Source of the DNA: a virus
Virus record (IMG/VR): IMGVR_UViG_3300023192_003818
Coordinates: 1 to 28,377 of that record
DNA length: 28,377 bases
Strand: one strand, 5' to 3'
Under the pieces are notes generated by a model. The model worked only from the letters and a program-made list of their open reading frames with translations. It ran no database searches and was not told the origin of the DNA. Made by a program: the position numbers and the translations under genes. Below, in pieces: positions 220-22,082 of this stretch. Each line of letters starts with the position of its first letter. Position 1 is the first letter of the stretch.

Positions 220-1599
220 TTATTTCCCTTTCAAAATATTAGATACACTCAATATTCCTTGAGAACCTGATACTGTTATACCTCTAGCACTTAATGCATC
301 CCCTACAAAGTGAACGTTTGGGTATTGGGTTAAACTGAGATCTTTGTAATTGACAATAGGTTCAGAAGAAAGATATTTAACCTCGGGAATATAAATCCCA
401 TAATTATTTTTAAGTGTTGGAAATATCTTTTTAAGGCCCTCAATAAAATCTTCTATGTATTGAAAATAACCTTGAAATATTTCTTTAACATTTTCCAACC
501 CAATTTCATTTATTTCAAAAGATGTTACATAATTTCCTTCACTTGTTCGGCTTGGCCTTATTTTAGGTGAGTTTGGAGAATAAAATAAACCACATTTACC
601 ACTACCCAAAGCATGGTCTCCTGATTCTTCTACTCTTTTTTGTGTTTTTTTAACTAATTCTCTACACCATTCAAAAGGTTTATCAATACCTTGAATTTCC
701 ATTAAAATCCCAAAATTAGTCATTCCGTTTTCAAATTTTTTATCTTTCTTAGCATGACCATTATATGAAATATCACCATAAGTTTTTTCAACAGCAACAT
801 AAGCAGCTGTATTGTTTGTACAAAATGTTCTTAATGATACTCCTTTATCTTCAAATTTTTTATATAATTTAAAGTCATAAGCTAAATCTATTAATTTTTG
901 GAAATGGTGGGAAGGAGCTTCAAATCTTACTCCTATTTGAACTGGTTTAGGTTCTGTAGGTAATTCGTAGTTTTCAATTAATCCTTTTGAAAAATCAATT
1001 CCTGATTTACCTACACAAAATATAAGAGTATCATATGTAAAGGAAGGGAAATAACCTGGGGTATCAGGAGTTGGTTCTACATTACACATAACTTTTTGGT
1101 CTTTAAAGTCTATTAATTTTACTCTAGTTTTCCAAATAAAATTCACCCCTTTCTCAACTAAATAATCATACCAAGCCTTATTTATTTCAAATAGATAATC
1201 AGTACCTATATGCCAAACCGGAAATAATCTTAAACCAAAATGGGGTTTTATAAAATCGGGTTCTTCAATAGGATTTGAACATTGTATTTGTTCAGGGTGA
1301 GGGTGGAATCTTCTAAAATTATTTATAACTTCATCCATTAAAGACATTGCTTTTTCTTCTCCACAGTACTTTGATAATTGTCCTCCTATTGAAGTGTGAT
1401 AAGTTAATTTACCATCTGACCAACCTCCTGCACCTAAGAATCCTTCCATTACTTCTTCAGGTTTTCTTTCATAAGGAGATTTACCCATATCAATTATAGT
1501 AATTAATTCTCCCGGATAATCATTATCAACTAATTTAGTTGCAGCATTTACTCCTGCAACTCCTGATCCTACTATTAATATTTTTTTATTATACTCCAT
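220..1599 (-). CDS. NAD(P)/FAD-dependent oxidoreductase (COG2509-like uncharacterised FAD dehydrogenase)
   Basis: N-terminal Rossmann motif ILIVGSGVAG, GFLGAGGWSDGKL signature, C-terminal HFVGD...RGITVSGSQG FAD-binding motif. Confidence 0.85.
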   Translation of the reverse strand: MEYNKKILIVGSGVAGVNAATKLVDNDYPGELITIIDMGKSPYERKPEEVMEGFLGAGGWSDGKLTYHTSIGGQLSKYCGEEKAMSLMDEVINNFRRFHPHPEQIQCSNPIEEPDFIKPHFGLRLFPVWHIGTDYLFEINKAWYDYLVEKGVNFIWKTRVKLIDFKDQKVMCNVEPTPDTPGYFPSFTYDTLIFCVGKSGIDFSKGLIENYELPTEPKPVQIGVRFEAPSHHFQKLIDLAYDFKLYKKFEDKGVSLRTFCTNNTAAYVAVEKTYGDISYNGHAKKDKKFENGMTNFGILMEIQGIDKPFEWCRELVKKTQKRVEESGDHALGSGKCGLFYSPNSPKIRPSRTSEGNYVTSFEINEIGLENVKEIFQGYFQYIEDFIEGLKKIFPTLKNNYGIYIPEVKYLSSEPIVNYKDLSLTQYPNVHFVGDALSARGITVSGSQGILSVSNILKGK

Positions 1600-1942
1600 A
1601 TTTTATAATTCTTATTTTCAAATTATATTTTTTAGCTAAATCAATCATATGTTTAGTTCCTTTACTTTTACCATCCCAAAATGCAATTAAAGAATCAGCA
1701 TATTTTGCCATTTCTTCATTTCTTATAAAACCTGCTGCTTTTCCATGCTTATCCCAATCAGCAGGAAATTGTTTTAATTTATAACTATTTTTTATAGCAT
1801 AAAGTTCACCTAATTTATCAGCACCATTAGCCGTTCCACTTACTATTTCTATATTTTCTGAAGAATTTAATATATTATCACATTTTTTACTTAAAAAATT
1901 AAATAAGTTAAAATCTCTTCCTCCAGCCACAATAACTTTCAT
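1589..1942 (-). CDS. SLOG-family protein (YspA/DUF2493-like)
   Basis: MKVIVAGGRDF, IVSGTANGAD, FPADW..HGKAAGFIRNEEM, FWDGKSKGT motifs. Start moved from 1990 to ATG 1942 because the extension overlaps a hairpin/promoter. Confidence 0.85.
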   Translation of the reverse strand: MKVIVAGGRDFNLFNFLSKKCDNILNSSENIEIVSGTANGADKLGELYAIKNSYKLKQFPADWDKHGKAAGFIRNEEMAKYADSLIAFWDGKSKGTKHMIDLAKKYNLKIRIIKYGV

Positions 1943-1946
1943 ACAC

Positions 1947-1978
1947 GTAATATACGAAAAAAAAGCCATGGCTCCAAA
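1947..1978 (-). promoter_or_regulatory. Bacteroidota sigma70-like promoter (TTTG-N20-TATATTAC)
   Basis: TTTG at 1978-1975, 20-nt spacer, TATATTAC at 1954-1947, just upstream of ATG 1942. Partial match to the TTTG/TAnnTTTG consensus. Confidence 0.5.
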
Positions 1979-2042: not shown

Positions 2043-2111
2043 TTAACAATCACAACAAGGACAATCACAGGATGTGCCACAGTTGCATGTTTTACAATTA
2101 CATTTATTCAT
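2043..2111 (-). CDS. 22-aa Cys-rich metallothionein-like micropeptide
   Basis: MNKCNCKTCNCGTSCDCPCCDC*, 9 Cys. AAATAAAATG start context, TATTTATA motif just upstream, terminator downstream. Confidence 0.7.
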   Translation of the reverse strand: MNKCNCKTCNCGTSCDCPCCDC

Positions 2112-2169: not shown

Positions 2170-2481
2170 TTATACATGAGAACTTAACCCACTACCTCCT
2201 GCAGGGTCTAAATCTCCATCATCAAACATATCTTCTCCTTCATGTTCATCTCTCTGTAGATCTTCTATCCAATCTTCATTATCTTCTAACCAATAACTAA
2301 ATGAATCATTATATTCATAAAAAGGGTCAATGAATTCTTCAACTATAGTTTTAATATTTTCAGGTTTTGATATTCCTATCCCTTTTAAGATTTCAATTAC
2401 ATTTTTTGGAATTGTAATTGTAATTTGAAGAGATTCCTCTTCATTAATAAATTTGTTAAATTCTTCTTGATATTGTTCCAT
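2170..2481 (-). CDS. Acidic hypothetical phage protein
   Basis: 103-aa ORF coupled to the upstream gene (TAATG overlap); very D/E-rich; early INE motif. Confidence 0.7.
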   Translation of the reverse strand: MEQYQEEFNKFINEEESLQITITIPKNVIEILKGIGISKPENIKTIVEEFIDPFYEYNDSFSYWLEDNEDWIEDLQRDEHEGEDMFDDGDLDPAGGSGLSSHV

Positions 2482-3086
2482 TATATTTTATCTACTAAAA
2501 AGTTCATCATTATTTTTATTTGATATTTATAAAATCCTTCTTGTAACCAATCCCCACCTTGAATTTGAATTAAATCTCTTAATAATTTAAAGTCTCTTAT
2601 ATTGGCCAAATCATCCATATTATTTAATAGTTCTGCTTTATCTCCTGCTGATTTCCATTCTCCATAGTTTTCTTCTTCAGAATCATTATAATCTTCTGTA
2701 ATATTATAGTTAATAGCATGTTTTAATTTCATTATTACTTCATCCGGATGAAGAACAACTTCATCTCCCTCTAAGAAATTTTCCCATTCTTCAGTGTAAA
2801 ATAAAATAGCATTAGAACCATCATCAAAATCTAACTCATGATAGCCACTTTCTTTTAACTCTACTCTATCAATCTTTACTTCTCTTTCACTTCCACCACC
2901 ATGGTAATAATAGCTACCAAGGCCATCAGATATATCTGTAATTATTACTGTTTGATCTTTTAATAAATCAGTTATAGTAGTTACATCATTTTTTATTTCA
3001 TCATCAAAGCTTACACCTCCTGTGTAGTCTTGGGTTTCATAAAGTTTGCCTTCGCTAATATATTTTTTTAAATTGAAGTTTTTCAT
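2481..3086 (-). CDS. Acidic hypothetical protein with shared N-terminal tag (putative internal head protein)
   Basis: Begins MKNFNLKKYISEGKLYE, nearly identical to the start of the 264-aa ORF. Confidence 0.75.
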   Translation of the reverse strand: MKNFNLKKYISEGKLYETQDYTGGVSFDDEIKNDVTTITDLLKDQTVIITDISDGLGSYYYHGGGSEREVKIDRVELKESGYHELDFDDGSNAILFYTEEWENFLEGDEVVLHPDEVIMKLKHAINYNITEDYNDSEEENYGEWKSAGDKAELLNNMDDLANIRDFKLLRDLIQIQGGDWLQEGFYKYQIKIMMNFLVDKI

Positions 3087-3088
3087 AA

Positions 3089-3340
3089 TTATATTATCTT
3101 TTTAAGCTTCATTAATTTTGTATCATTCTCTCCTAAATCAAGCATTCCACGAGAATATAATCTTCTTGCTTCTTTAATAAGTTTTATAAATTCCTTTTTA
3201 GGTAAAACTCCTAAACTTTCAATTAAGGGGATTTTACTATTTATTAAATTTTTAAGATTATTAGATAATATCGGTTCTATCCATTCCTCTTTTAAGATTG
3301 GATAATTTTTTTCACATTTATTACATCCACATTTACACAT
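3089..3340 (-). CDS. Hypothetical protein with N-terminal CxCxCxxC motif
   Basis: Start re-assigned to ATG 3340 (MCKCGCNKCEK), 1 nt after the stop of the 35-aa mini-ORF. The GTG 3400 extension overlaps that ORF. Confidence 0.65.
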   Translation of the reverse strand: MCKCGCNKCEKNYPILKEEWIEPILSNNLKNLINSKIPLIESLGVLPKKEFIKLIKEARRLYSRGMLDLGENDTKLMKLKKII

Positions 3341-3341
3341 A

Positions 3342-3449
3342 TTAAACAAATAATTTTTTAAAATCTCCATAAATTGAACTTTGGTTAACTCCAAAGTCAC
3401 TTAATAAAGATTCACTATCTTTTATTTTTTCTAGATTAAAGTTTTTCAT
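3342..3449 (-). CDS. 35-aa mini-ORF carrying the MKNFNL tag
   Basis: MKNFNLEKIKDSESLLSDFGVNQSSIYGDFKKLFV*. ATGA overlap with the upstream stop; its own stop is 1 nt before the next ATG. Confidence 0.55.
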   Translation of the reverse strand: MKNFNLEKIKDSESLLSDFGVNQSSIYGDFKKLFV

Positions 3450-3907
3450 AATTCTATATCATCTATTTCGGAGTTGGTAGAAATATCTAAAGGTTCTTCA
3501 CTTCCATCTATATCTGCTCCCCCTTCACTTGAATTGGTTTCTGATTTTCCCCCATACTGTAAAATACGAGCAATGGAAACAATTGCTCTTTGTTCTTCAT
3601 CTAAATTGAGTAAAAAATATTTTTTACCTTCAACTTGAGCTATCCAACTATTTTCATTATAAGTTAATATAAAACTTTGACCATTTAATAAATTAATTCT
3701 AAATGTTGTGGGTTTAGGTGCTACCCAATCTATACTTTCCAAAAATTTATCAAAATCAGTAGTTAATAAATCAACAATAACTACTTTAAGTTCTGGAAAA
3801 TTTGTTAATTCATCATAAGCTAAAGAAGCATCATCAACTTTGAACTTATCAGCCCAAACATTTAATACTAATCTTTTTATTTTATCTTTTAAATCTGCTT
3901 TAGTCAT
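3446..3907 (-). CDS. Hypothetical phage protein
   Basis: 153-aa ORF with ATGA coupling, globular core (IDWVAPKPTTFRINLLNGQ) and acidic tail. Confidence 0.8.
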   Translation of the reverse strand: MTKADLKDKIKRLVLNVWADKFKVDDASLAYDELTNFPELKVVIVDLLTTDFDKFLESIDWVAPKPTTFRINLLNGQSFILTYNENSWIAQVEGKKYFLLNLDEEQRAIVSIARILQYGGKSETNSSEGGADIDGSEEPLDISTNSEIDDIEL

Positions 3908-6408
3908 TTTTTATTAAGAATGTAGGCCTTTAAATCTTCACTTATTATATAAATATCATCTTGCAATTGTTCTAAATCTTCATGAGATAAAGCAACAACT
4001 AATTTTTTGTAAGGGTTTTGATATAAACCTTTACCTTTATATTCTTTATTAAATATATAAACTCCTGGAATTATATTTTGACCATTATGTTGGACATAAC
4101 TATCTGACCTAAATCTTTTAGGGTATTTGGGGGAATTTTCTTTACCTAATTTACCTGCTAGATTTGAGAATTTGTCTTCCTTTAAATTGCTTATCATTTC
4201 ATCTAAAGATAAAGTAATACCTGCTTTTTTGGCTGCTTGATTAAGTGGTTTTTTTAATTTAGGTTTATCTTTATAGTTTGCTCTTTTATACTGGTCTAAA
4301 ATATTTAAATATTGTTTTCTATCAGAATCTTCATCTTCTTTAATATTTCCCCTTTTTTTTAATTCTCCTTTCATTATAGAAGATCTCAGTTTTGCAGAAC
4401 GACCATAACCTTTATAATCTGTTGAATCTATTTTACTTATTTCTCCCTTTAATTCTTCATCTGACATATTTTTTATTTCATCTCCATCAGAAGTTTTGTT
4501 TTTTAATCCCCCATGGAAGGATGTTAAATCATATATTCCAGATTCTTTTAAATTTACAGACTTTTTAAGATTTTCTCTCCACTTATTACCATAAAGCTTC
4601 TTCATTAAACTTACTAACACTTTAGTATTTATTTTCTCTCCATCTGCTGAATATAACTTATCATTTTTTTGAATTATATGACCATCTTTTTTAATATAGT
4701 CTTGTAATTGTTGTTGTAATTTAGTTAAATTTTTATTATCTTCTTCATTAACTTTTTTACCTTTTTCTGAATCTGTGATTTTTTTTAACATTTCTTCAGC
4801 AGTATCATTTATATTACCATACATTGGAGAATTTGGTAGTGAAACATTTATAATATCTCCAAAATTTTGCATTTCATAACTTCCTGCTCCACCTTCTTTA
4901 TCAGGTAAATCTAAACTAAAAATATTTTTCTCTAAAGAGTCTTTATTTAAAGTAACTTTAACATTTAAATATTTAGACATTGCTTGAGCTAAAGTATTAG
5001 CAGGATTAATTGTAGATTTTAGATCTTCATCATTAACTTTTTTACCTTTTTCTAAATCTGTGATTTTTTTTAACATTTCTTCAGCAGAATCATTTATATT
5101 ACCATACATTGGAGAATTTGGTAGTGAAATATTTATAATATCTCCAAAATTTTGCATTTCATAACTTCCTGCTCCACCTTCTTCATCAGGTAAATCTAAA
5201 CTAAAAATATTTTTCTCTAAAGAGTCTTTATTTAAAGTAACTTTAACATTTAAATGTTTAGACATTGCTTGAGCTAAAGTATTAGCAGGATTAATTGTAG
5301 ATTTTAGATCTTCATCAATAGTTTCATCTACTTCTATTCTATCTTTATAAAAATCTCTTTGAGCTTTTCCTTCTCTATTAAAAGCATCTGCAATTAATTC
5401 TTTTAATTTTTCAAATTCTTTAGGAGATAATTCTATTGGTGTATAATTACCATCTTTAAAATAACTGGATATTCCTACATATCTTGTATCTAATTTGTCT
5501 CTAAATCCTAATTTTGATAATTCTGATGTGTCAATTCTATCTTGAGATGTTATTATTCTAACAATAAAATTTTCATTTTCTTTTTTGAATTGAATAGTAC
5601 TATGATCACTATAATTTATATTCTTATAGTCTCTATAACCCTCTTTTTCTTCTCCCCATTCTTCATTCAATTCCTTAACAGGTTCAGGGTATTTCTTTTG
5701 TAATTGTTTTTTGGGGGAGTGTGTAGATGATGTTTCATCCTCATTCATATTATATCCTTTTTTATTGGATAATTTTAAACCCCTTTTTACAGCATATTTT
5801 ATAGCATCATCAGGTGAATCAAACGTCATATCAATTTGAGCTGAACCATCAGGTTTTTCTAAAATATAGTGATGTTTTTTATCACCCTCACGTTTTCCTG
5901 CTCTTGAAATCATTACTTCATCTCCTTTATTTCCCATATAACCTTCATTAGTATCTTCTTCAATTTGTTCACCAATTGGAATATAACCTAATTTAGTATC
6001 ATATTTTCCAATTTTTTCTTCTAATTTAAATATTAAATTTGAAATAGATGTTAAGGCTCTTTGCCAAGTAATATCAGAAGTTTTTGCTAATAATTCCTCA
6101 ATTTTTTCAGAAAGAGCTTCAGTATGAGTTCCAACCTCATCCCAAATATATGCTTCTCTATCTTTAACATTATCTTCTTCTGTTAAAGGGGGGTTTTGTA
6201 ATACTTTTCTTACTAGTTCTTTAAGATTATTTTTATTCATCTCTTCTATTTTTTTTCTACCTTGTTTTGTAGCAATTCCATACATAACCTTCTCAGCATC
6301 AGCTCCATATTTCTTAACTAGAGCACTTTTATTTTGTTTAAGACCTTGAATAGCACGTTCCCGTGCCTCTACTTCATTATCACTAAGTTTACTTTCATTA
6401 AGCATCAT
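3904..6408 (-). CDS. Large modular charged protein (putative polyprotein / internal head protein) with an internal tandem duplication
   Basis: 834-aa ORF. Short modules flanked by LNE, LTEE, IEE, MNE, LNEE, IDE, VNEE, LKE, IKE, ISE. Confidence 0.8.
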   Translation of the reverse strand: MMLNESKLSDNEVEARERAIQGLKQNKSALVKKYGADAEKVMYGIATKQGRKKIEEMNKNNLKELVRKVLQNPPLTEEDNVKDREAYIWDEVGTHTEALSEKIEELLAKTSDITWQRALTSISNLIFKLEEKIGKYDTKLGYIPIGEQIEEDTNEGYMGNKGDEVMISRAGKREGDKKHHYILEKPDGSAQIDMTFDSPDDAIKYAVKRGLKLSNKKGYNMNEDETSSTHSPKKQLQKKYPEPVKELNEEWGEEKEGYRDYKNINYSDHSTIQFKKENENFIVRIITSQDRIDTSELSKLGFRDKLDTRYVGISSYFKDGNYTPIELSPKEFEKLKELIADAFNREGKAQRDFYKDRIEVDETIDEDLKSTINPANTLAQAMSKHLNVKVTLNKDSLEKNIFSLDLPDEEGGAGSYEMQNFGDIINISLPNSPMYGNINDSAEEMLKKITDLEKGKKVNDEDLKSTINPANTLAQAMSKYLNVKVTLNKDSLEKNIFSLDLPDKEGGAGSYEMQNFGDIINVSLPNSPMYGNINDTAEEMLKKITDSEKGKKVNEEDNKNLTKLQQQLQDYIKKDGHIIQKNDKLYSADGEKINTKVLVSLMKKLYGNKWRENLKKSVNLKESGIYDLTSFHGGLKNKTSDGDEIKNMSDEELKGEISKIDSTDYKGYGRSAKLRSSIMKGELKKRGNIKEDEDSDRKQYLNILDQYKRANYKDKPKLKKPLNQAAKKAGITLSLDEMISNLKEDKFSNLAGKLGKENSPKYPKRFRSDSYVQHNGQNIIPGVYIFNKEYKGKGLYQNPYKKLVVALSHEDLEQLQDDIYIISEDLKAYILNKK
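4738..5317. repeat. Tandem direct repeat, 285-bp unit (95 aa), 2 copies
   Basis: ATTAGCAGGA at 4996 and 5281 (offset 285). Six substitutions between the copies on manual alignment. Confidence 0.95.
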
Positions 6409-6415
6409 TTAGTAT

Positions 6416-7210
6416 TTATTCATCCCCAAAAGGAGTATAACCTTCTGAATCTCTTCTATATTCACTAGGATTTCTTAATTTATTTCCCATTCTATTATAA
6501 AAATATTCTCCATCCCAATATTCATAACTATCTGAAGGAGAGTAATATTCTTTTTCTAAATCAGAAATATCAATTCTTTCATATTCTTCATCTAAATCCC
6601 TTAACCCATCCTCTGAAATTTTATCAAATAAAGAACCTTGCCCCATTTCTCTTCTATTTTTAGCATCAATAAAAGATATAGTACTATTTCCTTTTGTAAC
6701 TATTTCTCCTTTATGAAGTCTATCCATTTCAGATTTAGTAAGATTAAAAGTACCATCCTCTGTTGAAACAACAATAGGATCGTCATCTTCATTTTCTTTT
6801 AAAGATTCATAATTAATTTCTCCTTGGTCATCATAATCATCATAAGTATCAAAGTCTTCTTCATATTCTCGTTCTTGAGTATCTCCATCATTATTAAAAA
6901 CTCCTTCAAATCTAACACTAATATCTAAGGAATCAAATAATTGAGATAAATCTCCTTCTAATGCATCATAATTTTCCATTTTTTCAGGGAAAAACCAATA
7001 ATTTTCTATTGAATTCCATTCTCCAAAAAACGCTGAATCCTCTAGTGCACCACTAATTAAATCATTATCTGATTGGGTACTTCCAATTACAATTAATCCT
7101 TGTTCCTCTTCATCAAATCCTTCATCTAAAGATTCATAATTTATTTTACCTTTTTCATTGTAATGAATTCTACCTTCACTAATAAATTTTTTTATATTAA
7201 AGTCTTTCAT
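6416..7210 (-). CDS. Acidic modular protein with shared N-terminal tag
   Basis: Begins MKDFNIKKFISEGRI; contains a duplicated G(K/E)INYESL(D/K)E linker. Confidence 0.8.
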   Translation of the reverse strand: MKDFNIKKFISEGRIHYNEKGKINYESLDEGFDEEEQGLIVIGSTQSDNDLISGALEDSAFFGEWNSIENYWFFPEKMENYDALEGDLSQLFDSLDISVRFEGVFNNDGDTQEREYEEDFDTYDDYDDQGEINYESLKENEDDDPIVVSTEDGTFNLTKSEMDRLHKGEIVTKGNSTISFIDAKNRREMGQGSLFDKISEDGLRDLDEEYERIDISDLEKEYYSPSDSYEYWDGEYFYNRMGNKLRNPSEYRRDSEGYTPFGDE

Positions 7211-7216
7211 AATTTT

Positions 7217-7927
7217 TTAATATTTACTTCTTCTTAATCCACTATGTTCATCTTCTTCTTCACTATCACCAATATCTTTCCATTTAGGTTTTCTTTTTAA
7301 TTTCACATCTGAATCAGGAATACCACCTTTTGTGTAATCTTTAAACACATCATATTCTTTTGCAAAAAAATCACCATCTACATCATCTTCAGCTACTTGA
7401 TTACCTCCTACAATATGAGTACGAGTAAACATTGTAATAGTATTACCTATTTGTTTTGCTAATTTATCATCTGCAATCTGAAGTGCATTATCATAAGCCA
7501 ATTTTAAAGCATCTTGAATTTGTTTTTCATCTTTTGTTAAACCTTCTTCAGGTGAGAATTGTATTTCTTCATCTCCACCTTCATCAGGAATATCATCTAT
7601 AACCGGTTCATCCACAACATCTTCTCCATCTCCTAAGTCAATATCATCTAAATTGATATCTTCAACATCATCCTTTTCATCTTCTTCATCCTTTTTCTTA
7701 TCTTTTTCATTAAGATTAAATAATATTTCTTCTCTTATTTTAAATTTTAATTCAGAAATTTTAATTTTAGTAGGTACTGATTCTTCAATTTCATTATCAG
7801 AATTAGAATCAACTACTTTATATCTTGGTTTAGTAGATTTTAATTCAGTTAGTAATTTGCTTTTTTTTTCATCATATTTAAATAAGACTTTGCTTTTTAA
7901 ATAGGCTTTATAATCGAAATTATCCAT
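7217..7927 (-). CDS. Acidic hypothetical protein (head scaffold/core-like)
   Basis: Begins MDNFDYKAYLK; long D/E tract; helical segment IQDALKLAYDNA...KLAKQIGNTITMFTR. Confidence 0.75.
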   Translation of the reverse strand: MDNFDYKAYLKSKVLFKYDEKKSKLLTELKSTKPRYKVVDSNSDNEIEESVPTKIKISELKFKIREEILFNLNEKDKKKDEEDEKDDVEDINLDDIDLGDGEDVVDEPVIDDIPDEGGDEEIQFSPEEGLTKDEKQIQDALKLAYDNALQIADDKLAKQIGNTITMFTRTHIVGGNQVAEDDVDGDFFAKEYDVFKDYTKGGIPDSDVKLKRKPKWKDIGDSEEEDEHSGLRRSKY

Positions 7928-7938
7928 GTGTTTTTAGT

Positions 7939-7946
7939 TATAAATA
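7939..7946 (-). promoter_or_regulatory. TATTTATA putative late-type promoter
   Basis: AATATTTATAAC, 11 nt before ATG 7927. Confidence 0.5.
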
Positions 7947-8018
7947 TTATTTTTTCTTCTAGATTTATTTTTAACAATATTAGGTGTTATTTATGTTTTT
8001 TTTCTTACTTTAATTTTA

Positions 8019-8525
8019 TTAACTTACATCCATACTATCATCCCAAGTTGCTTCTATTTCTAAAGAGGTTAACTTATCAACAATGTCATTTAAAAGAGAA
8101 ATACCATTAAAATCTGATATTTTTGGTAATTTTAGGTTAATTCCTAAATAATTAAGTAAACTATTTGTATCATCACCCCCAATTTTAATAGTTTCACCAC
8201 CTTTAACTAATATAGTTTTATAAAATCTTCCTCTATCTGTATAATTAATATCTATTTTTTCAATAGATTTATAACCACTTTCAGTAAGTGAACCTAATCC
8301 ATGGTTTTGTAACCCAAAATAAAAACTGGTTGCTGTTGGAAATTCTTGCTGAAAAATAGACATTCTTAATCCTGATTTTTTTGATGGTGATTCTAAATAA
8401 TTCTTTAACCAATTCCATATTTTAAAGGAATCTTGAGGAGAAATATTAGCATCATTATTATTTTCTTCAAATTCTCTAAGTCTTTGCTTGTATGACCAAG
8501 TCTTTATATTAAAATTATCTGGCAT
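8019..8525 (-). CDS. Hypothetical protein with tag-like N-terminus
   Basis: 168-aa ORF beginning MPDNFNIKTW; TATTTATA at 8552-8559 upstream. Confidence 0.75.
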   Translation of the reverse strand: MPDNFNIKTWSYKQRLREFEENNNDANISPQDSFKIWNWLKNYLESPSKKSGLRMSIFQQEFPTATSFYFGLQNHGLGSLTESGYKSIEKIDINYTDRGRFYKTILVKGGETIKIGGDDTNSLLNYLGINLKLPKISDFNGISLLNDIVDKLTSLEIEATWDDSMDVS

Positions 8526-9159
8526 TTTTTTTAGGTTTTATTTTTTCATCATATAAATAAGTACCAATAAGTGTACCTAATGAAATTGCTTTATCACTTA
8601 ACTCACTAATTTGTTCTTCATTTAATTTTTTAGTTTTATGAACATAATCAATGCCAAAAGTTCCTATAAAATCTCCTTCTATAGTTTTAAGAGCAAAGAT
8701 ATAAGAAGATTTAGTTTTTAAACCTTCAGCAAATGTTTTTAACCCAAATGTTGGGGAATTTTTTGAAGTAAAAGATGGAATTATTATTTGATTATTTTTA
8801 TATAATTCCATTAAAGGTTTGTTAAATAATGAAACTGGTATTGATGTAAAGGTACTCATTTTACTTTCAACTCCCAATTTTATATGTTCAAACATTACTG
8901 AAAATTTAGTAATTGCTTTCCCGGTTGGGAAAAAATGACCACCATTGTGAAATTGTGATAACCAAACTCTGTCTGATTTAAAGTCCTCTTGTATTTTTTC
9001 TAGCATTTCATCCACAACCATGTTGGATTTAATTATGCAATATATAGGGTCTTCTTTTGGTTTTTTAGATTCCAAGTAAGATTTATACCTAATATTAATC
9101 ATAGGTCCTATTATTGCAGTAATAAGAACCAATATTATAGCTATGTCCAATTCTAACAC
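8515..9159 (-). CDS. Membrane-anchored GAF-like domain protein (possible holin)
   Basis: Single N-terminal hydrophobic helix (IAIILVLITAIIGPMI), then DRVWLSQFHNG...SYIFAL...FIGTFGIDY, a GAF-like pattern. GTG start overlaps the upstream TAG. Confidence 0.6.
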   Translation of the reverse strand: MLELDIAIILVLITAIIGPMINIRYKSYLESKKPKEDPIYCIIKSNMVVDEMLEKIQEDFKSDRVWLSQFHNGGHFFPTGKAITKFSVMFEHIKLGVESKMSTFTSIPVSLFNKPLMELYKNNQIIIPSFTSKNSPTFGLKTFAEGLKTKSSYIFALKTIEGDFIGTFGIDYVHKTKKLNEEQISELSDKAISLGTLIGTYLYDEKIKPKKNAR

Positions 9160-9731
9160 TATTTTTTAAGTTTTAACAAATATTTTATTACTTCTTGTTT
9201 ATAAATATTGACCCTTTCTTCGTCTAATTGCCCTACCCATTTTTCCATTTGGCCTCCTTCAGATATAAATGACTCATTATCTTCTCCTTTTTTCTCTTCA
9301 ATCCATAATTTAAATTCTTTTATTTTATTATTAATTTCATCATTGTGAATCTTAATTTCATATTCTTTCCACTTTCCTTCTTTTTTAATTTCTATTTCCA
9401 TATCAATAACACAATTGTAACACTTTTTATGAATTCTATAAAAATCTTTATCATTTCTATTTTTCATAATTTTGGTACATTTAGGACAAAATAGTGGAAG
9501 TTTATATAATTTTTTAGCATTATCTAATTTAGTAACATTTTGTTTTATTCCATCTTTAATCGTCCATTCCCTATCATCCTCTACCCAAATATCTCCTTCT
9601 TTATAAATTTCACGTTTTTTAGAATACCCTATAACTGTTTTAGTTTTATCTCCATATTTACCTTGTATGAGATTTCTTAAACGTTGTACATCGTTTCTAT
9701 TAAACTGTTTCTTTAAAACTGATTCTTTCAT
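9159..9731 (-). CDS. Hypothetical phage protein with zinc finger
   Basis: CPKC...CYNC pair in a 190-aa ORF. Confidence 0.75.
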   Translation of the reverse strand: MKESVLKKQFNRNDVQRLRNLIQGKYGDKTKTVIGYSKKREIYKEGDIWVEDDREWTIKDGIKQNVTKLDNAKKLYKLPLFCPKCTKIMKNRNDKDFYRIHKKCYNCVIDMEIEIKKEGKWKEYEIKIHNDEINNKIKEFKLWIEEKKGEDNESFISEGGQMEKWVGQLDEERVNIYKQEVIKYLLKLKK

Positions 9732-12678
9732 TAACTATATTTTTTAGGTCTGATATGGTTTGTTGTGTATTTTTGTAAAAAATTCCTGTTCCTCCTGCTT
9801 TATTCCAAGTATCTATTGTTCTTTGTTTATCATCAACAAGGATATCATATTTGGTTAATTTGGGTTTTATTGTATGTTTTTCTTTTGAGAATTTGAAATT
9901 AATTTTAGGTATGGAAGGGAAGACGTCTCCTACATGATTTTTAACCCATAATCTTTTACCTAATTTTGATTGGTCTTTTAATGATGGAGAAGTTAAAATT
10001 TCATAGTCATAATCTTTTGCAAAATCAACTAATTCTTTTGCTCCATCCATTACAGGAATTCCTACCCAAAATTTTACTTTATTTTTTTCATCTATAAAAT
10101 CCCAAAATTCATTTCTTCCATATTTATCTTCAAAGTCTCCAGGTGACATCCCTGATAGGTCTCTAAAACGTTGATCAAAATCTGCTAAAACTCCATCTTG
10201 GTCTAAATAAATTTTATATTCTTGTTCTTTTGCAAGTTCTTTTATAAATTCTACTAAACCAAAAGGGTCATTTTCATTTATTTGTTCTATATTTTTAACT
10301 AGTACTATTTCATCCCCCTCTAGGTCCATTATCCAACCCTTAGGTAAATTCTTTTTTATATAAGCTTTATATAAGTTAAATCTTCTAGTATCATCCTTAA
10401 AATTTTTGGTTGGATCAATCAATATAAATTCCACATCTTTATTTTCAGATATAAATTCTTCTATAATACTTGTTATAGTAGACATTACTCTAAATATTTC
10501 TCCTTTATTTATAGTTCTTATAAAAGTATCATCTTTATCAAAATCCTCTAAAGTAAAAAACTCAATACTAGCTCTCTCATCCGCTATATGAATTTTTACT
10601 TCATATTGTGTATCTTTATCAGTTACAAATTTATAAGATTTAACAAAATATGAATCTTCGTCTTGGAAATAAGCATATGACTTAGCAGAACCATCTCCTA
10701 TTTCATTAATTTCTTTTAATGGGGAATTAAAAATTTGATCTTCTTTATAACCTAATAATTGGCCTATTCTATATATGTCTTTTTGTAAATTTTCTACATT
10801 TTCAGCATTATAATGACTAACATCTTCTAAATTACAAGGCTCGCATGCTGGGAGATAACCTCCATATTTTTCTACTAATGCTAATAATTCTTTTGCTTGT
10901 TCTATAAAACCCTCCCTATAAATTATAATTCCATTATTAGGACTTGAAGGAGCTTTTAAGGTTTTTATATCACTATATTTAGGTAAATCTTTAATAAAAT
11001 CAGGTTCAATATACCATGCCGCCCACATCACATTTCTTTTTTTATCTAATAAAGTTTGAAATGCATCATCATCCTCATATGCTTCTGAAGGATCAATTTC
11101 TTCGTTCAATTTATTACCTGTTTGTTTATCAGTCCAACTTCTAAACATAATATTTCCTTTCTCATATGCTTCACTTTCAAGTTTAGTAAGATATGCGTCT
11201 GTATTTATATCAGTAGTGTGAGATGCTTGATTTAAACGGTCTTCTACGTTTTGATACACATGAATAAGCTCATGACAGTAACTACGTAATATATCTTTGG
11301 GATGGCGGTTAAAAGTGTATAAGACAATAATATTAGTATTGGGGTCATAATGAGCAGTTTTACCTAATATACCTTTACTATTTTTTACATCATCTTCAAT
11401 AAATTGAACTTTTGGGTAAGGCTTTAAATTTATACCTTTTTCTTCCATGTGTTTAACAATAGAGGTAAGGTAAGGTTTTAATTCATTCTCTATGTTTGGG
11501 ATTTGTTCTTGTAGAGATTCTTTATTATCAATCTTATCTACAGATAAAATATAATCTTTAATATTTTCTATATACCCTTTAGGTGTAATAATAACTTCTT
11601 CATCTTCATCTTGAGTTTGGGGATTATTTGGAATATTATAGTCTCTCCTCCAATAATCATTAGGTAATATTTTGTAATTATTAGATAATTTATCCCCATC
11701 TAGTACTATTTGAACTTCATTATCATCGTATTTAAAATTTTTGTTTCTTGTAGTTGAAACCCCTGTTGTTTCTTCTCCATGAATGTTAATATAAGAACCT
11801 TTTAATTTATTTTGACTTAAAATATTCTTTAAATTTGGAAGAGAGGTATAATGATAAATTATTCCTACTTGTTTACCTTCTTCCAAACCTACCTTTCCCA
11901 ACTTTGAATAATATTGAGGGTCTTCATAAATATTATCCATTGCTATTTCAAAAGCAATATCTATGTTATCAGTATGTTCTAATTCTTCTTGTGAACCTAT
12001 TGTAATTTGATTTATTATATCTCTTAAATCAACCTTATGCATGTCTGCTAAATCTTCAAGAGTTGAACTTTTGGCAATTCCTCCTGAAATAATATTCTCA
12101 TGAAGGGTTGAAGATAAAATTCCGTAAACTTCTTGTTGTTCTTCATCATTTAATTCATTAGGTAAAAATGGTATTAATTTTTCTAAGGATACTTCAGCGG
12201 CATTACGAGCAGCAGTTCCACTTACTCCTTCTTGAGTAACAATTGTTCTTAAATCTATGTTAGGATATTTATTTATTGAAGTTGTTCTTGAGGAAATATC
12301 TTTAAAATCTTCCTCATTTCCTTCCCTGGCTCCTATTACCCATAATATTTTTTTATCAGGGTTGTTTTTAGAATAACGATAAATATCTCGAATTGGTTCT
12401 ACACTTGAAGGAACAAATTTAACTTTATTAGGTAAATATTTGTTATAAATTTCCCATATTAAAAGTGATTGGTCTTGAGTAACTCCTTCTCTTTCTTTTT
12501 TACCAATAAAAACTATAAATTCATCTATTTCAGGGTTTTCTTTTAAAGCTTGTTTAATTACTTCAAAATGTCCTCTTGTTGCAGGTTTAAATCCCCCACC
12601 ATATACAGCAATTATTTTTGTAGGTTCTTGATCTTCAGGTATAAGATCTTTTATCATATGTTTAACTAAAAAATTCAT
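9700..12678 (-). CDS. Polyvalent multidomain protein: HIGH nucleotidyltransferase + DUF5661-like + ART-like + HExxH metallopeptidase + 2 unknown domains + HAD 5'(3')-nucleotidase
   Basis: YGGGFKPATRGH/VSGTAAR; ELEHTD...IAMDN..EDPQYYSKL; YHYTS...VSTTR...EDEE; HELIH...ESEA; IYLDQDGVLADF...LTSP...LVDD. Confidence 0.8.
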   Translation of the reverse strand: MNFLVKHMIKDLIPEDQEPTKIIAVYGGGFKPATRGHFEVIKQALKENPEIDEFIVFIGKKEREGVTQDQSLLIWEIYNKYLPNKVKFVPSSVEPIRDIYRYSKNNPDKKILWVIGAREGNEEDFKDISSRTTSINKYPNIDLRTIVTQEGVSGTAARNAAEVSLEKLIPFLPNELNDEEQQEVYGILSSTLHENIISGGIAKSSTLEDLADMHKVDLRDIINQITIGSQEELEHTDNIDIAFEIAMDNIYEDPQYYSKLGKVGLEEGKQVGIIYHYTSLPNLKNILSQNKLKGSYINIHGEETTGVSTTRNKNFKYDDNEVQIVLDGDKLSNNYKILPNDYWRRDYNIPNNPQTQDEDEEVIITPKGYIENIKDYILSVDKIDNKESLQEQIPNIENELKPYLTSIVKHMEEKGINLKPYPKVQFIEDDVKNSKGILGKTAHYDPNTNIIVLYTFNRHPKDILRSYCHELIHVYQNVEDRLNQASHTTDINTDAYLTKLESEAYEKGNIMFRSWTDKQTGNKLNEEIDPSEAYEDDDAFQTLLDKKRNVMWAAWYIEPDFIKDLPKYSDIKTLKAPSSPNNGIIIYREGFIEQAKELLALVEKYGGYLPACEPCNLEDVSHYNAENVENLQKDIYRIGQLLGYKEDQIFNSPLKEINEIGDGSAKSYAYFQDEDSYFVKSYKFVTDKDTQYEVKIHIADERASIEFFTLEDFDKDDTFIRTINKGEIFRVMSTITSIIEEFISENKDVEFILIDPTKNFKDDTRRFNLYKAYIKKNLPKGWIMDLEGDEIVLVKNIEQINENDPFGLVEFIKELAKEQEYKIYLDQDGVLADFDQRFRDLSGMSPGDFEDKYGRNEFWDFIDEKNKVKFWVGIPVMDGAKELVDFAKDYDYEILTSPSLKDQSKLGKRLWVKNHVGDVFPSIPKINFKFSKEKHTIKPKLTKYDILVDDKQRTIDTWNKAGGTGIFYKNTQQTISDLKNIVNERISFKETV

Positions 12679-12684
12679 TTTATT

Positions 12685-13098
12685 TTAAGAACATTGACAA
12701 GTTCCGTAAGGATTTTCATCACTTATATTTCTTGGTTCATCACAACTTTTACACCATGAAGAATCATATTCTTCATCTTCTTGTTCATTTACAGGTTGTT
12801 CAGACATTCCATAATTTTTCAAAAAATTAAAAAAAGATGAGTATTTATCTAAATATTCAGATATAAATCTTAATTCTTTATACTTATCATCAGAAAGAGT
12901 ATTTAATAAAATTAAAGGATTCATTTCGTCTTTCAAATCTACATACCCTTCCATTATTTCTTCTAAATTTTCTAAATTATGAAGTATCCCTAAAGCTTTA
13001 TCCCAAACTGTTTCTAGTTGATTTTTTAAATCCTGTGAGTTATCTAAATCTCTATCTTCTTTTAAATATTCTTGAAATGCTTTTTTATAATCTTCCAT
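12685..13098 (-). CDS. Acidic hypothetical protein with C-terminal Cys cluster
   Basis: 137 aa; YLKE and VNE motifs; CKSC...CQC tail. Confidence 0.7.
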   Translation of the reverse strand: MEDYKKAFQEYLKEDRDLDNSQDLKNQLETVWDKALGILHNLENLEEIMEGYVDLKDEMNPLILLNTLSDDKYKELRFISEYLDKYSSFFNFLKNYGMSEQPVNEQEDEEYDSSWCKSCDEPRNISDENPYGTCQCS

Positions 13099-13101
13099 TT
13101 T

Positions 13102-13902
13102 TTAATTTAAAAATTGTTTTATTTTATTTTGTGCTTCTTCTTTCGAAACTGAATTATCTACTATATTTTGTACTACTTTATTATTTAATAAAGATTTAAC
13201 TGATAGAGTTAATTGTTCTTTTGATTTATTTGACCTTGCCTGTGCTTTATCATCTTTTGGTATTGTGTTTTTAGCTTTGAAAGGGTCTAAATATTGTTTT
13301 GTTAAAGATTCTAAATCTCTTAATTCCTCATCTTCTAAAGTATTAGCAACACTTATAAAATTATTCCCAAATAATTCTCTATAAGGATTATAATTTTGTG
13401 TTACACTATTCCAAGTACGTAATACTAAAGAAGGAGCAATGCTTCTATCTTCACCACCACTTTTTTCAAATCTATCCTGATTTTGAATTAAAGAACGTTC
13501 TAAACTGGTATAAACATATAACATAAATACCTCATATTCTGCTTCTTCTAACTTATTTTTTAATAATGATGTTTGCTTAAATGAAGCAGCAGTACCATCT
13601 AATACAAATGATTCTTTGTTTAAAATAGAGTTTGGTATTTGTTGTTTTTTTAATTGTTGAGTAGCCTGTACCATCGCTTGGGCAGATTTACTTCTATCAT
13701 CAGCACTTGCTCTTTTTAAATCTAAAGAAACATTAGCTTGTTTTAACAATTTGATATAATTATCATCAAGATTAAAGACTTTTAATCCACCTAAATCCAA
13801 ACCTTTTAAAACAAATCCTTTACCTGAGCCTGGAGCTCCTGCAAGGATTATTGCTTTAGGGGATTGTAATACTTCTTTAAGAATTTCTATTAAACTTATC
13901 AC
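13102..13902 (-). CDS. Zeta-toxin-like / AAA_33 P-loop kinase
   Basis: Walker A GAPGSGKG, FNLDD, FVLDGT, MLYVYTSLERS...R pattern; N-terminal MISLIEILKE leader. Confidence 0.75.
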   Translation of the reverse strand: MISLIEILKEVLQSPKAIILAGAPGSGKGFVLKGLDLGGLKVFNLDDNYIKLLKQANVSLDLKRASADDRSKSAQAMVQATQQLKKQQIPNSILNKESFVLDGTAASFKQTSLLKNKLEEAEYEVFMLYVYTSLERSLIQNQDRFEKSGGEDRSIAPSLVLRTWNSVTQNYNPYRELFGNNFISVANTLEDEELRDLESLTKQYLDPFKAKNTIPKDDKAQARSNKSKEQLTLSVKSLLNNKVVQNIVDNSVSKEEAQNKIKQFLN

Positions 13903-13915
13903 TTCATAGATTTAT

Positions 13916-13923
13916 CATAAATA
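13916..13923 (-). promoter_or_regulatory. TATTTATG variant of the late-type motif
   Basis: AATATTTATGAT, 13 nt before GTG 13902. Confidence 0.4.
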
Positions 13924-13934
13924 TTGATTGGTAA

Positions 13935-21971: not shown

Positions 21972-22082
21972 TTAATTAATGTATGAAAAGGTATGTCCTT
22001 TTCTTATTTTTTTATTATTTCCTATTAATATTGATATAATTGTTCTTTTCTTTATATATTTTTTTAAATTAAAATTATTCAT
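21972..22082 (-). CDS. 36-aa chimeric mini-ORF (N-terminal tag + NUMOD1-like tail), possibly a remnant
   Basis: MNNFNLKKYIKKRTIISILIGNNKKIRKGHTFSYIN*, with TATTTATA motif just upstream. Confidence 0.5.
   Translation of the reverse strand: MNNFNLKKYIKKRTIISILIGNNKKIRKGHTFSYIN

Follow-up and report, generated by a model that had tools for sequence, protein, structure and literature searches.

Why a run of otherwise unrelated phage genes should begin with the same few short peptides is the question raised by a block of about 12 kb at positions 2170-13902 of IMG/VR virus record IMGVR_UViG_3300023192_003818. The DNA analyzed here (the window) is positions 1-28377 of this 106.6-kb virus contig, which is 65% complete and carries nearly all of its genes on the minus strand. 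The window forms one end of this incomplete contig, whose phage is related to Immutovirus. A preliminary description had proposed that the entire block encodes proteins that share one N-terminal tag, are assembled from modules bounded by [LIV]xE, and are packaged in the head, matured by a protease, and injected. The present analysis favors a narrower proposal for most block genes, with a probability of about 0.72, in which passengers made late dock through short leaders, are cut by the prohead protease, and as separate modules probably exit with the DNA. Feature coordinates are window positions; 33892-34272, 47105, 51037, and 102487 are contig positions outside the window.

The long tag is a leader of 17-18 residues with the pattern MxxF[DN]L[KR]KY[LI]xEG[KR]L(L)xE. 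It was surveyed with a DNA pattern covering its first 13 residues, and 127 matching stretches were examined of an estimated ~320. These stretches placed the tag on at least 160 distinct proteins belonging to 74 body families, and at the start of the open reading frame (ORF) in 141 of 157. In 144 of 160 the tag ends, at residue 17 or 18, in a second [LIV]xE that the search pattern does not require, and conservation of the tagged proteins stops after this closing site.

Leader profiles trained on relatives only, with the contig itself excluded, were scored against its 182 ORFs; the 99.5th percentile of shuffled N-termini was 6-7 bits. The N-termini listed in the preliminary description are all present on the minus strand. 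The tag profile gave 29.8 bits at 3086, 21.5 at 7210, 19.2 at 7927, 14.8 at 22082, 8.6 at 8525, and 1.1 at 3449, and further copies outside the window at 47105 and 102487 lie within 19-30 bits. Unsupervised clustering of N-termini, restricted to proteins with non-homologous bodies, recovered signal peptides as a control and put 3086, 7210, 7927, and 102487 in one group; 8525 fell in a Trp-variant group together with seven other body families. By profile and clustering, the idea of a shared tag on unrelated ORFs holds for 3086, 7210, 7927, and (as the Trp variant) 8525, and it fails for 3449 and 22082, which are decayed stubs. Both of the latter were rejected as cargo: the 35-residue ORF at 3342-3449 has Asp at the closing site when set in register with intact tags, and the 36-residue ORF at 21972-22082 retains the first 10 tag residues with no Glu site.

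The single tag of the preliminary description gave way to several leader families, with at least four leader types coexisting. A third type, ME[DQ]Y...F..Y[LI]xE, begins the gene at 12685-13098 and the ORFs starting at 2481 and 51037, and was found on this contig only. An adjacent ORF pair at G000:C1:50427-51037 (minus strand) has a common internal peptide after a Glu site, and one of the two bears this third leader. Mel-JY01, of which 90 of 190 kb were covered, has few strong leaders. The same kinase carries a 10-residue leader in the window and the long tag in another locus (L313). A second movable unit is the ART-like module at residues 268-391 of the 992-residue polyprotein encoded at 9700-12678, which has HYT, STT, and EDEE motifs; among named clusters Arr and DarT/PARP come nearest to it (0.89-0.90), a lead only. 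This module starts directly after [LIV]xE in 12 of 12 parsed loci (13 were fetched, two being the same protein) irrespective of the sequence that precedes it, and it is found either within polyproteins or alone behind leaders of 8-10 residues. One of its loci (L204) bears a leader closely like those of T4 IPI-III, and most neighboring ORFs on that phage fragment begin with a leader like the T4 capsid targeting sequence (CTS). Eight nearby genes at L208 and G012:C1:8609-14438 share one short leader and include stand-alone ART-like and DUF6934-like modules; a locus scan for the DUF6934-like module confirmed none. Across 47 non-redundant homologues of the 992-residue protein the modules are reordered and duplicated. 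Judged by sequence, there are several types of leader, and they are real and portable.

Module junctions were defined as de-duplicated BLAST breakpoints in the proteins of relatives, scored as near when they lay ≤6 residues from [LIV]xE, and compared with local shuffles. Block-zone junctions were near a site in 96 of 226 cases (42%) versus 27% in shuffles; the control ExL reached 33% and other control motifs were flat. Junctions in downstream neck and tail proteins were near a site in 12 of 130 (9%) versus 10% expected. The automatically placed junctions of the 992-residue protein averaged 8.7 residues from a site versus 23.2 for random positions (p 0.0006; 11 non-independent points). In homologous segments of this protein a site was present at 24/24 ART-like starts and 20/22 ends, at 19/20 DUF6934-like starts and 16/17 ends, at 21/22 nucleotidyltransferase ends, and at 36/45 peptidase starts. 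The AlphaFold model puts the junction sites in coil beside confident domains and most other matches inside helices or strands, with the caveat that low confidence also spans poorly aligned modules. As the alignments read, [LIV]xE marks leader ends and module junctions, and modules are shuffled and duplicated there.

Shared starts and junction motifs could also arise as DNA cassettes, that is, expression-friendly 5' ends and crossover homologies with no role in targeting or cleavage. Several pairs of tag copies are identical at 30-36 of 42 nucleotides, the decayed copies on the stubs show that the cassette has been copied around, and bulk motif frequency in the block is ordinary. We consider this explanation very improbable: what is conserved is protein and stops at a Glu, leaders of unrelated DNA share the closing tripeptide before the same module, the motif is absent from the junctions of mosaic tail-region proteins, and in the jumbo phage Atu_ph07 (below) the motif is associated with virion enrichment and a size drop.

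The candidate protease was sought in relatives. Flavobacterium phage vB_FspM_immuto (Immutovirus; immuto hereafter) is the best cultured match for two window proteins. It has an equivalent block between exonuclease and terminase, followed by portal, prohead protease, a scaffold-like gene, and gp23, and the nearest IMG/VR relatives share this gene order. The contig stops short of this head module, which in relatives comprises terminase, portal, gp21-type protease, scaffold, and gp23; gp23, gp20, and gp17, the markers for placement among Far-T4 clades, are thus not on it, and the one pointer in that direction is a match of a structural-region protein to RM378. The protease is encoded in four of the five nearest relatives, a few kb downstream of the block; the preliminary description had suggested looking for a gp21-like gene elsewhere on the contig, where no match was found. 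The relatives' protein matches T4 gp21 (5JBL, E 1e-16), its His, Ser, and Asp are at the expected positions, and it has [LIV]xE sites near both ends. In the capsid protein of the relatives LxE8 and VxE58 are invariant, and VxE58 lies no more than 4 residues from the place where T4 gp23 is cut. An early site is present in all 17 distinct capsid N-termini and in none of 21 portal proteins or 11 terminases.

Two resemblances are leads to what the leaders may mimic. One immuto leader family matches the C-terminal tail of the scaffold (21.5 bits); specifically, the leaders of gp083 and gp230 match the tail of the scaffold-like gp067 (L001:45626-46867, L001:31675-32139, L003:25061-25456). The first 8 residues of the capsid protein (L116:11939-13567, alignment A1) are like a short cargo leader, with Leu6 and Glu8 invariant. 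Complex prediction for a relative's capsid protein with that relative's own tag peptide scored 0.00, which is uninformative in either direction.

The motif ATATTTAT heads the block at 13917-13924 (minus strand), with copies at 9201-9208, 7940-7947, and 3949-3956. TATTTAT was found upstream of 131/133 portal and 59/80 neck genes, 0/11 exonuclease genes, and 0/8 primase genes; ATATTTAT/TATTTAT is a putative late promoter element. Strongly tagged genes away from the structural region carry the motif in 2/2 cases on the contig (others 7/118) and in 3/5 in immuto (others 11/136). These counts bear on whether the leaders, as protein-level signals, have a purpose unrelated to the head and act, for example, as a degron, as an anchor at a membrane or assembly site, or as a docking helix for tail or baseplate. 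One leader type does occur on a baseplate-region gene (33892-34272), and some tagged genes sit far from head genes. Distant tagged genes nevertheless tend to carry the structural-gene motif, the closing tripeptide matches sites on the capsid protein and the protease termini, and one immuto leader family copies the scaffold tail, so a destination outside the head receives very little credence from us.

No virion proteome for immuto or its clade was found in the literature searched. One has been published for Atu_ph07, a T4-like jumbo phage encoding a gp21 homologue (PMC6102473, Table S5). The table was mapped to ORFs by mass and order for 138 of 140 rows, the gp42 row in part. An early [LIV]xE was present in 46 of 138 virion-listed ORFs versus 136 of 673 others (p 0.001), and four control motifs were flat. 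The short-leader profile trained on the window's clade reached 8 bits in 4 of 138 listed ORFs versus 0 of 673 others. Atu_ph07 gp53 has such a leader and a homologue of the window kinase between two sites (E 3e-16); this 87-kDa protein peaks in a gel band whose other proteins average 21 kDa. Eleven of 40 leader-bearing proteins ran far below their own mass versus 5 of 67 others (p 0.01), one in each class being an artefact of the wide top band. Genes gp53-63 (L213:24484-35592) encode eleven adjacent virion proteins with a common 8-residue leader ending in Glu, of which the available parts of the paper make no mention. A further pattern, which matches 21 Atu_ph07 ORFs of which 20 are virion-listed, was drawn up with the list already in view and is descriptive only. 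Atu_ph07 also encodes a stand-alone 5'-nucleotidase homologue, which lacks a leader and is absent from the virion list. There is no close long-tag match in this phage, so its proteome bears on the principle and the short leader, both of which it supports, and not on the long tag.

Packaging and cutting are also predicted if the tagged proteins are core or filler like T4 gp22, gp67, and gp68, which T4 degrades (PMC9958956); they would be shredded, the pieces would leave before DNA packaging, and little would be injected. Conserved position, acidity, and abundant sites characterize the products of 7217-7927, 3446-3907, and the start of 3904-6408; modules move between the block and head-core genes, and the head-core zone has the highest motif excess (1.59x). 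These three products may belong to the core and be broken down instead of being delivered. As an account of the block as a whole, the core explanation is unlikely: the stretches between sites hold folded enzyme modules whose motifs are intact, the diversity of 74 unrelated bodies following a single tag suggests variable cargo, and the homologous kinase protein gp53 persists in mature Atu_ph07 particles with 31 peptides.

In the cargo proposal, most block genes would be made late, and short interchangeable N-terminal leaders are predicted to dock the passengers into the core of the assembling prohead. Cleavage after [LIV]-x-Glu by the gp21-type protease would then detach the leader and divide polyproteins into single modules, and the folded modules would remain inside the capsid until they pass into the host together with the DNA. 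We infer late expression, packaging, cleavage, and injection alike, and cleavage draws indirect support from the Atu_ph07 virion proteome. Head loading and protease trimming are well supported, indirectly, because of the synteny of a gp21-type protease, the capsid propeptide motif, leader swapping, junction enrichment, and the Atu_ph07 proteome. Injection is the weakest step, suggested by analogy with T4 and by the ART-like, kinase, and nucleotide-metabolizing modules. The preliminary picture of head-packaged, protease-matured, injected proteins is accordingly retained in its first two parts, and its third is drawn from T4.

Several results weigh against the cargo proposal. Neither a prohead protease (at E 10) nor a capsid gene was found on the 65% complete contig. 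A credible Pfam family was identified in 1 of 74 tagged bodies, so an effector role would be conjectural for most of them. Bulk [LIV]xE in the block is 86 versus 77.8 in shuffles (z 1.1), and the reversed control ExL exceeds it at 1.33x; motif frequency alone gives no support and was dropped as evidence. The claim that modules are bounded by [LIV]xE stands in the relatives' junctions and did not reach significance in the window's own block, where a coarser junction test with few homologues gave 7 of 19. Among the relatives' block junctions 58% have no site within 6 residues. Junctions of the 992-residue protein also lie near the controls [LIV]E (p 0.009) and ExL (p 0.047), and of 26 peptidase ends and three nucleotidase starts, just 14 and one, respectively, have a site. 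The best long-tag scores among Atu_ph07 virion proteins, 11.6 and 8.6 bits, lie amid like-scoring non-virion ORFs, and a gel-band proteome cannot tell inside from outside, nor processing from decay. The main tag, with 17-18 residues and two sites, has no likeness to T4 leaders.

A broader reading is tentative, and we place it a little short of even odds. It holds that this is a general plug-in cargo system of T4-related aquatic phages, in which a few interchangeable address peptides and protease-site linkers would allow any domain to join a polyprotein, to be packaged once, and to be set free in the head as a separate injected enzyme, some address peptides being copied from the docking ends of the phage's own scaffold and capsid propeptide; the estimate applies to both parts jointly. 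If this reading is true, virion cargo would be predictable from the leader sequence in hundreds of genomes, and leaders would point to a large number of uncharacterized early counter-defense proteins.

The closest known system is that of T4, where a CTS on IPI-III and Alt is removed by gp21 (PMC9026906, PMC9958956). In both, unrelated proteins carry a short N-terminal leader that ends in L/I-x-E, and the cargo includes the ART type; the counterpart of the T4 protease is the gp21-type protease of the relatives. They differ in that at least four leader types and dozens of cargo families are found here and that the cargo includes polyproteins with sites between modules. The window tags are unlike the 10-residue CTS of IPI-III, and a T4-like leader was found only on the homologous module of L204; the block is therefore not classed as a member of the T4 internal-protein system, though it would work alike. 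A review has suggested that CTS-like leaders may be a general mechanism of T4-like phages. No description of the present leaders, and no paper on polyproteins split by a head protease, was found in the literature searched, which included few subscription papers and no bioRxiv supplements.

Polyvalent and MuF-fused effectors (Iyer et al.) are multi-domain proteins encoded near head genes and proposed to be injected (PMC9503650, PMC7824862). They likewise combine ART, zincin-like peptidase, kinase, and nucleotide-processing domains, and the 992-residue protein and its 47 homologues hold several conflict-type domains in variable order. Targeting here appears instead to use short leaders, and head-protease sites between domains are not described in the available parts of those two papers. 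No MuF or portal fusion was detected in block proteins (Pfam E 0.01, PHROGs 0.001); the kinase domain matches part of a 'minor head protein' profile in these searches. In phiKZ, 201phi2-1, and SPN3US, ejection proteins are processed by gp21-like proteases (PMC9026906). As in phiKZ-type phages, where many head proteins are cut after Glu and propeptide sites are redundant (PMC9026906), cutting here would follow Glu; the phiKZ motif is S/A-x-E, in contrast to the T4-like [LIV]-x-E and short portable leaders of this T4-related phage. Immuto, the nearest cultured relative found, has the same gene order and leader families and differs in its cargo set, its block genes being annotated mostly as hypothetical.

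How proteins are localized to the T4 core was still called mysterious in a 2023 review (PMC9958956). This question becomes testable in a clade that has several natural, swappable leaders and, in immuto, a cultured member. The tag offers a sequence rule for picking candidate head cargo from unannotated genes, enzymes could be co-delivered compactly as polyproteins that a head protease cuts, and new leaders could widen the CTS toolkit for capsid loading.

The block is described here in the order of transcription on the minus strand. A 266-residue Zeta-toxin-like P-loop kinase (13102-13902; PF06414, E 6e-14) has a 10-residue short leader ending in LKE (13873-13902, 19.3 bits). The next gene (12685-13098) encodes a 137-residue protein with the third leader type at 13057-13098 and a body with no homologue in the sets searched. 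The 992-residue polyprotein (9700-12678), assigned by homology and modules, has a 15-residue leader ending in IPE followed by a nucleotidyltransferase (12097-12621), DUF5661 (11878-12096), the ART-like module (11506-11877), an HExxH peptidase-like module (11101-11505), a module of no named family (10711-11100), a DUF6934-like module (10273-10701), and a HAD 5'-nucleotidase (9727-10230). Its junction sites are at residues 194, 267, 391, 526, 656/659, 802, and 984.

Two of the following genes do not fit the preliminary view of the whole block as cargo. The conserved 190-residue Cys-containing protein at 9159-9731 has no leader score and full-length homologues at 57-61% in near relatives, and it is probably not tagged cargo. 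The 214-residue protein at 8515-9159 has an N-terminal hydrophobic helix and a GAF domain (TM-GAF, for the helix as a transmembrane segment; model pLDDT 95.8, Foldseek GAF hits at E about 1e-8), lacks a leader, and is not cargo. This combination forms a conserved family with 458 representatives at E 0.001. The layout resembles that of T4 holin T, and no match to holin T was among the structure matches listed.

The Trp variant of the tag (8472-8525), ending in LRE, begins a 168-residue protein at 8019-8525. The acidic 236-residue product of 7217-7927 has a tag-like N-terminus, an internal amphipathic motif, seven [LIVM]xE sites, and homologues at the same position in relatives; it may be a core protein. 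A 264-residue tagged modular protein (6416-7210, tag 7154-7210) follows, and its residues 35-113 reappear within head-region proteins of relatives. The 834-residue polyprotein at 3904-6408 has a conserved N-terminal part, shuffled modules, and 22 [LIVM]xE sites; it includes a 95-residue tandem duplication (5026-5310 and 4744-5025) with edges IDE, VNDE, and VNE, and a homologue search with residues 84-834 gave one partial relative only. The conserved 153-residue protein at 3446-3907, which has a weak helical leader (6.4 bits) and in some relatives is itself fused to another protein as its C-terminal module, may also be a core protein. An 83-residue protein with a Cys-rich leader ending in LKE (3089-3340) is shorter than its 203-447-residue homologues. 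The last two genes encode a 201-residue protein (2481-3086) with the full 17-residue tag (3036-3086), sites ISE and LYE, and an orphan acidic body, and a 103-residue acidic protein (2170-2481) with the third leader type (2440-2481) ending in INE.

Beyond the block, the tail of the 21972-22082 stub resembles by eye the end of a relative's homing endonuclease at the same site, which is a GIY-YIG enzyme (L012:4792-5472). The conserved gene after the stub appears to start at GTG, not ATG. At 2043-2111 (minus strand) a 22-residue Cys-rich metallothionein-like ORF directly follows a ATATTTAT motif at 2130. A gene for an FAD-dependent oxidoreductase and a YspA/SLOG gene occupy 220-1969 (minus strand), between the block and the missing head module, and the position of the oxidoreductase is kept in near relatives.

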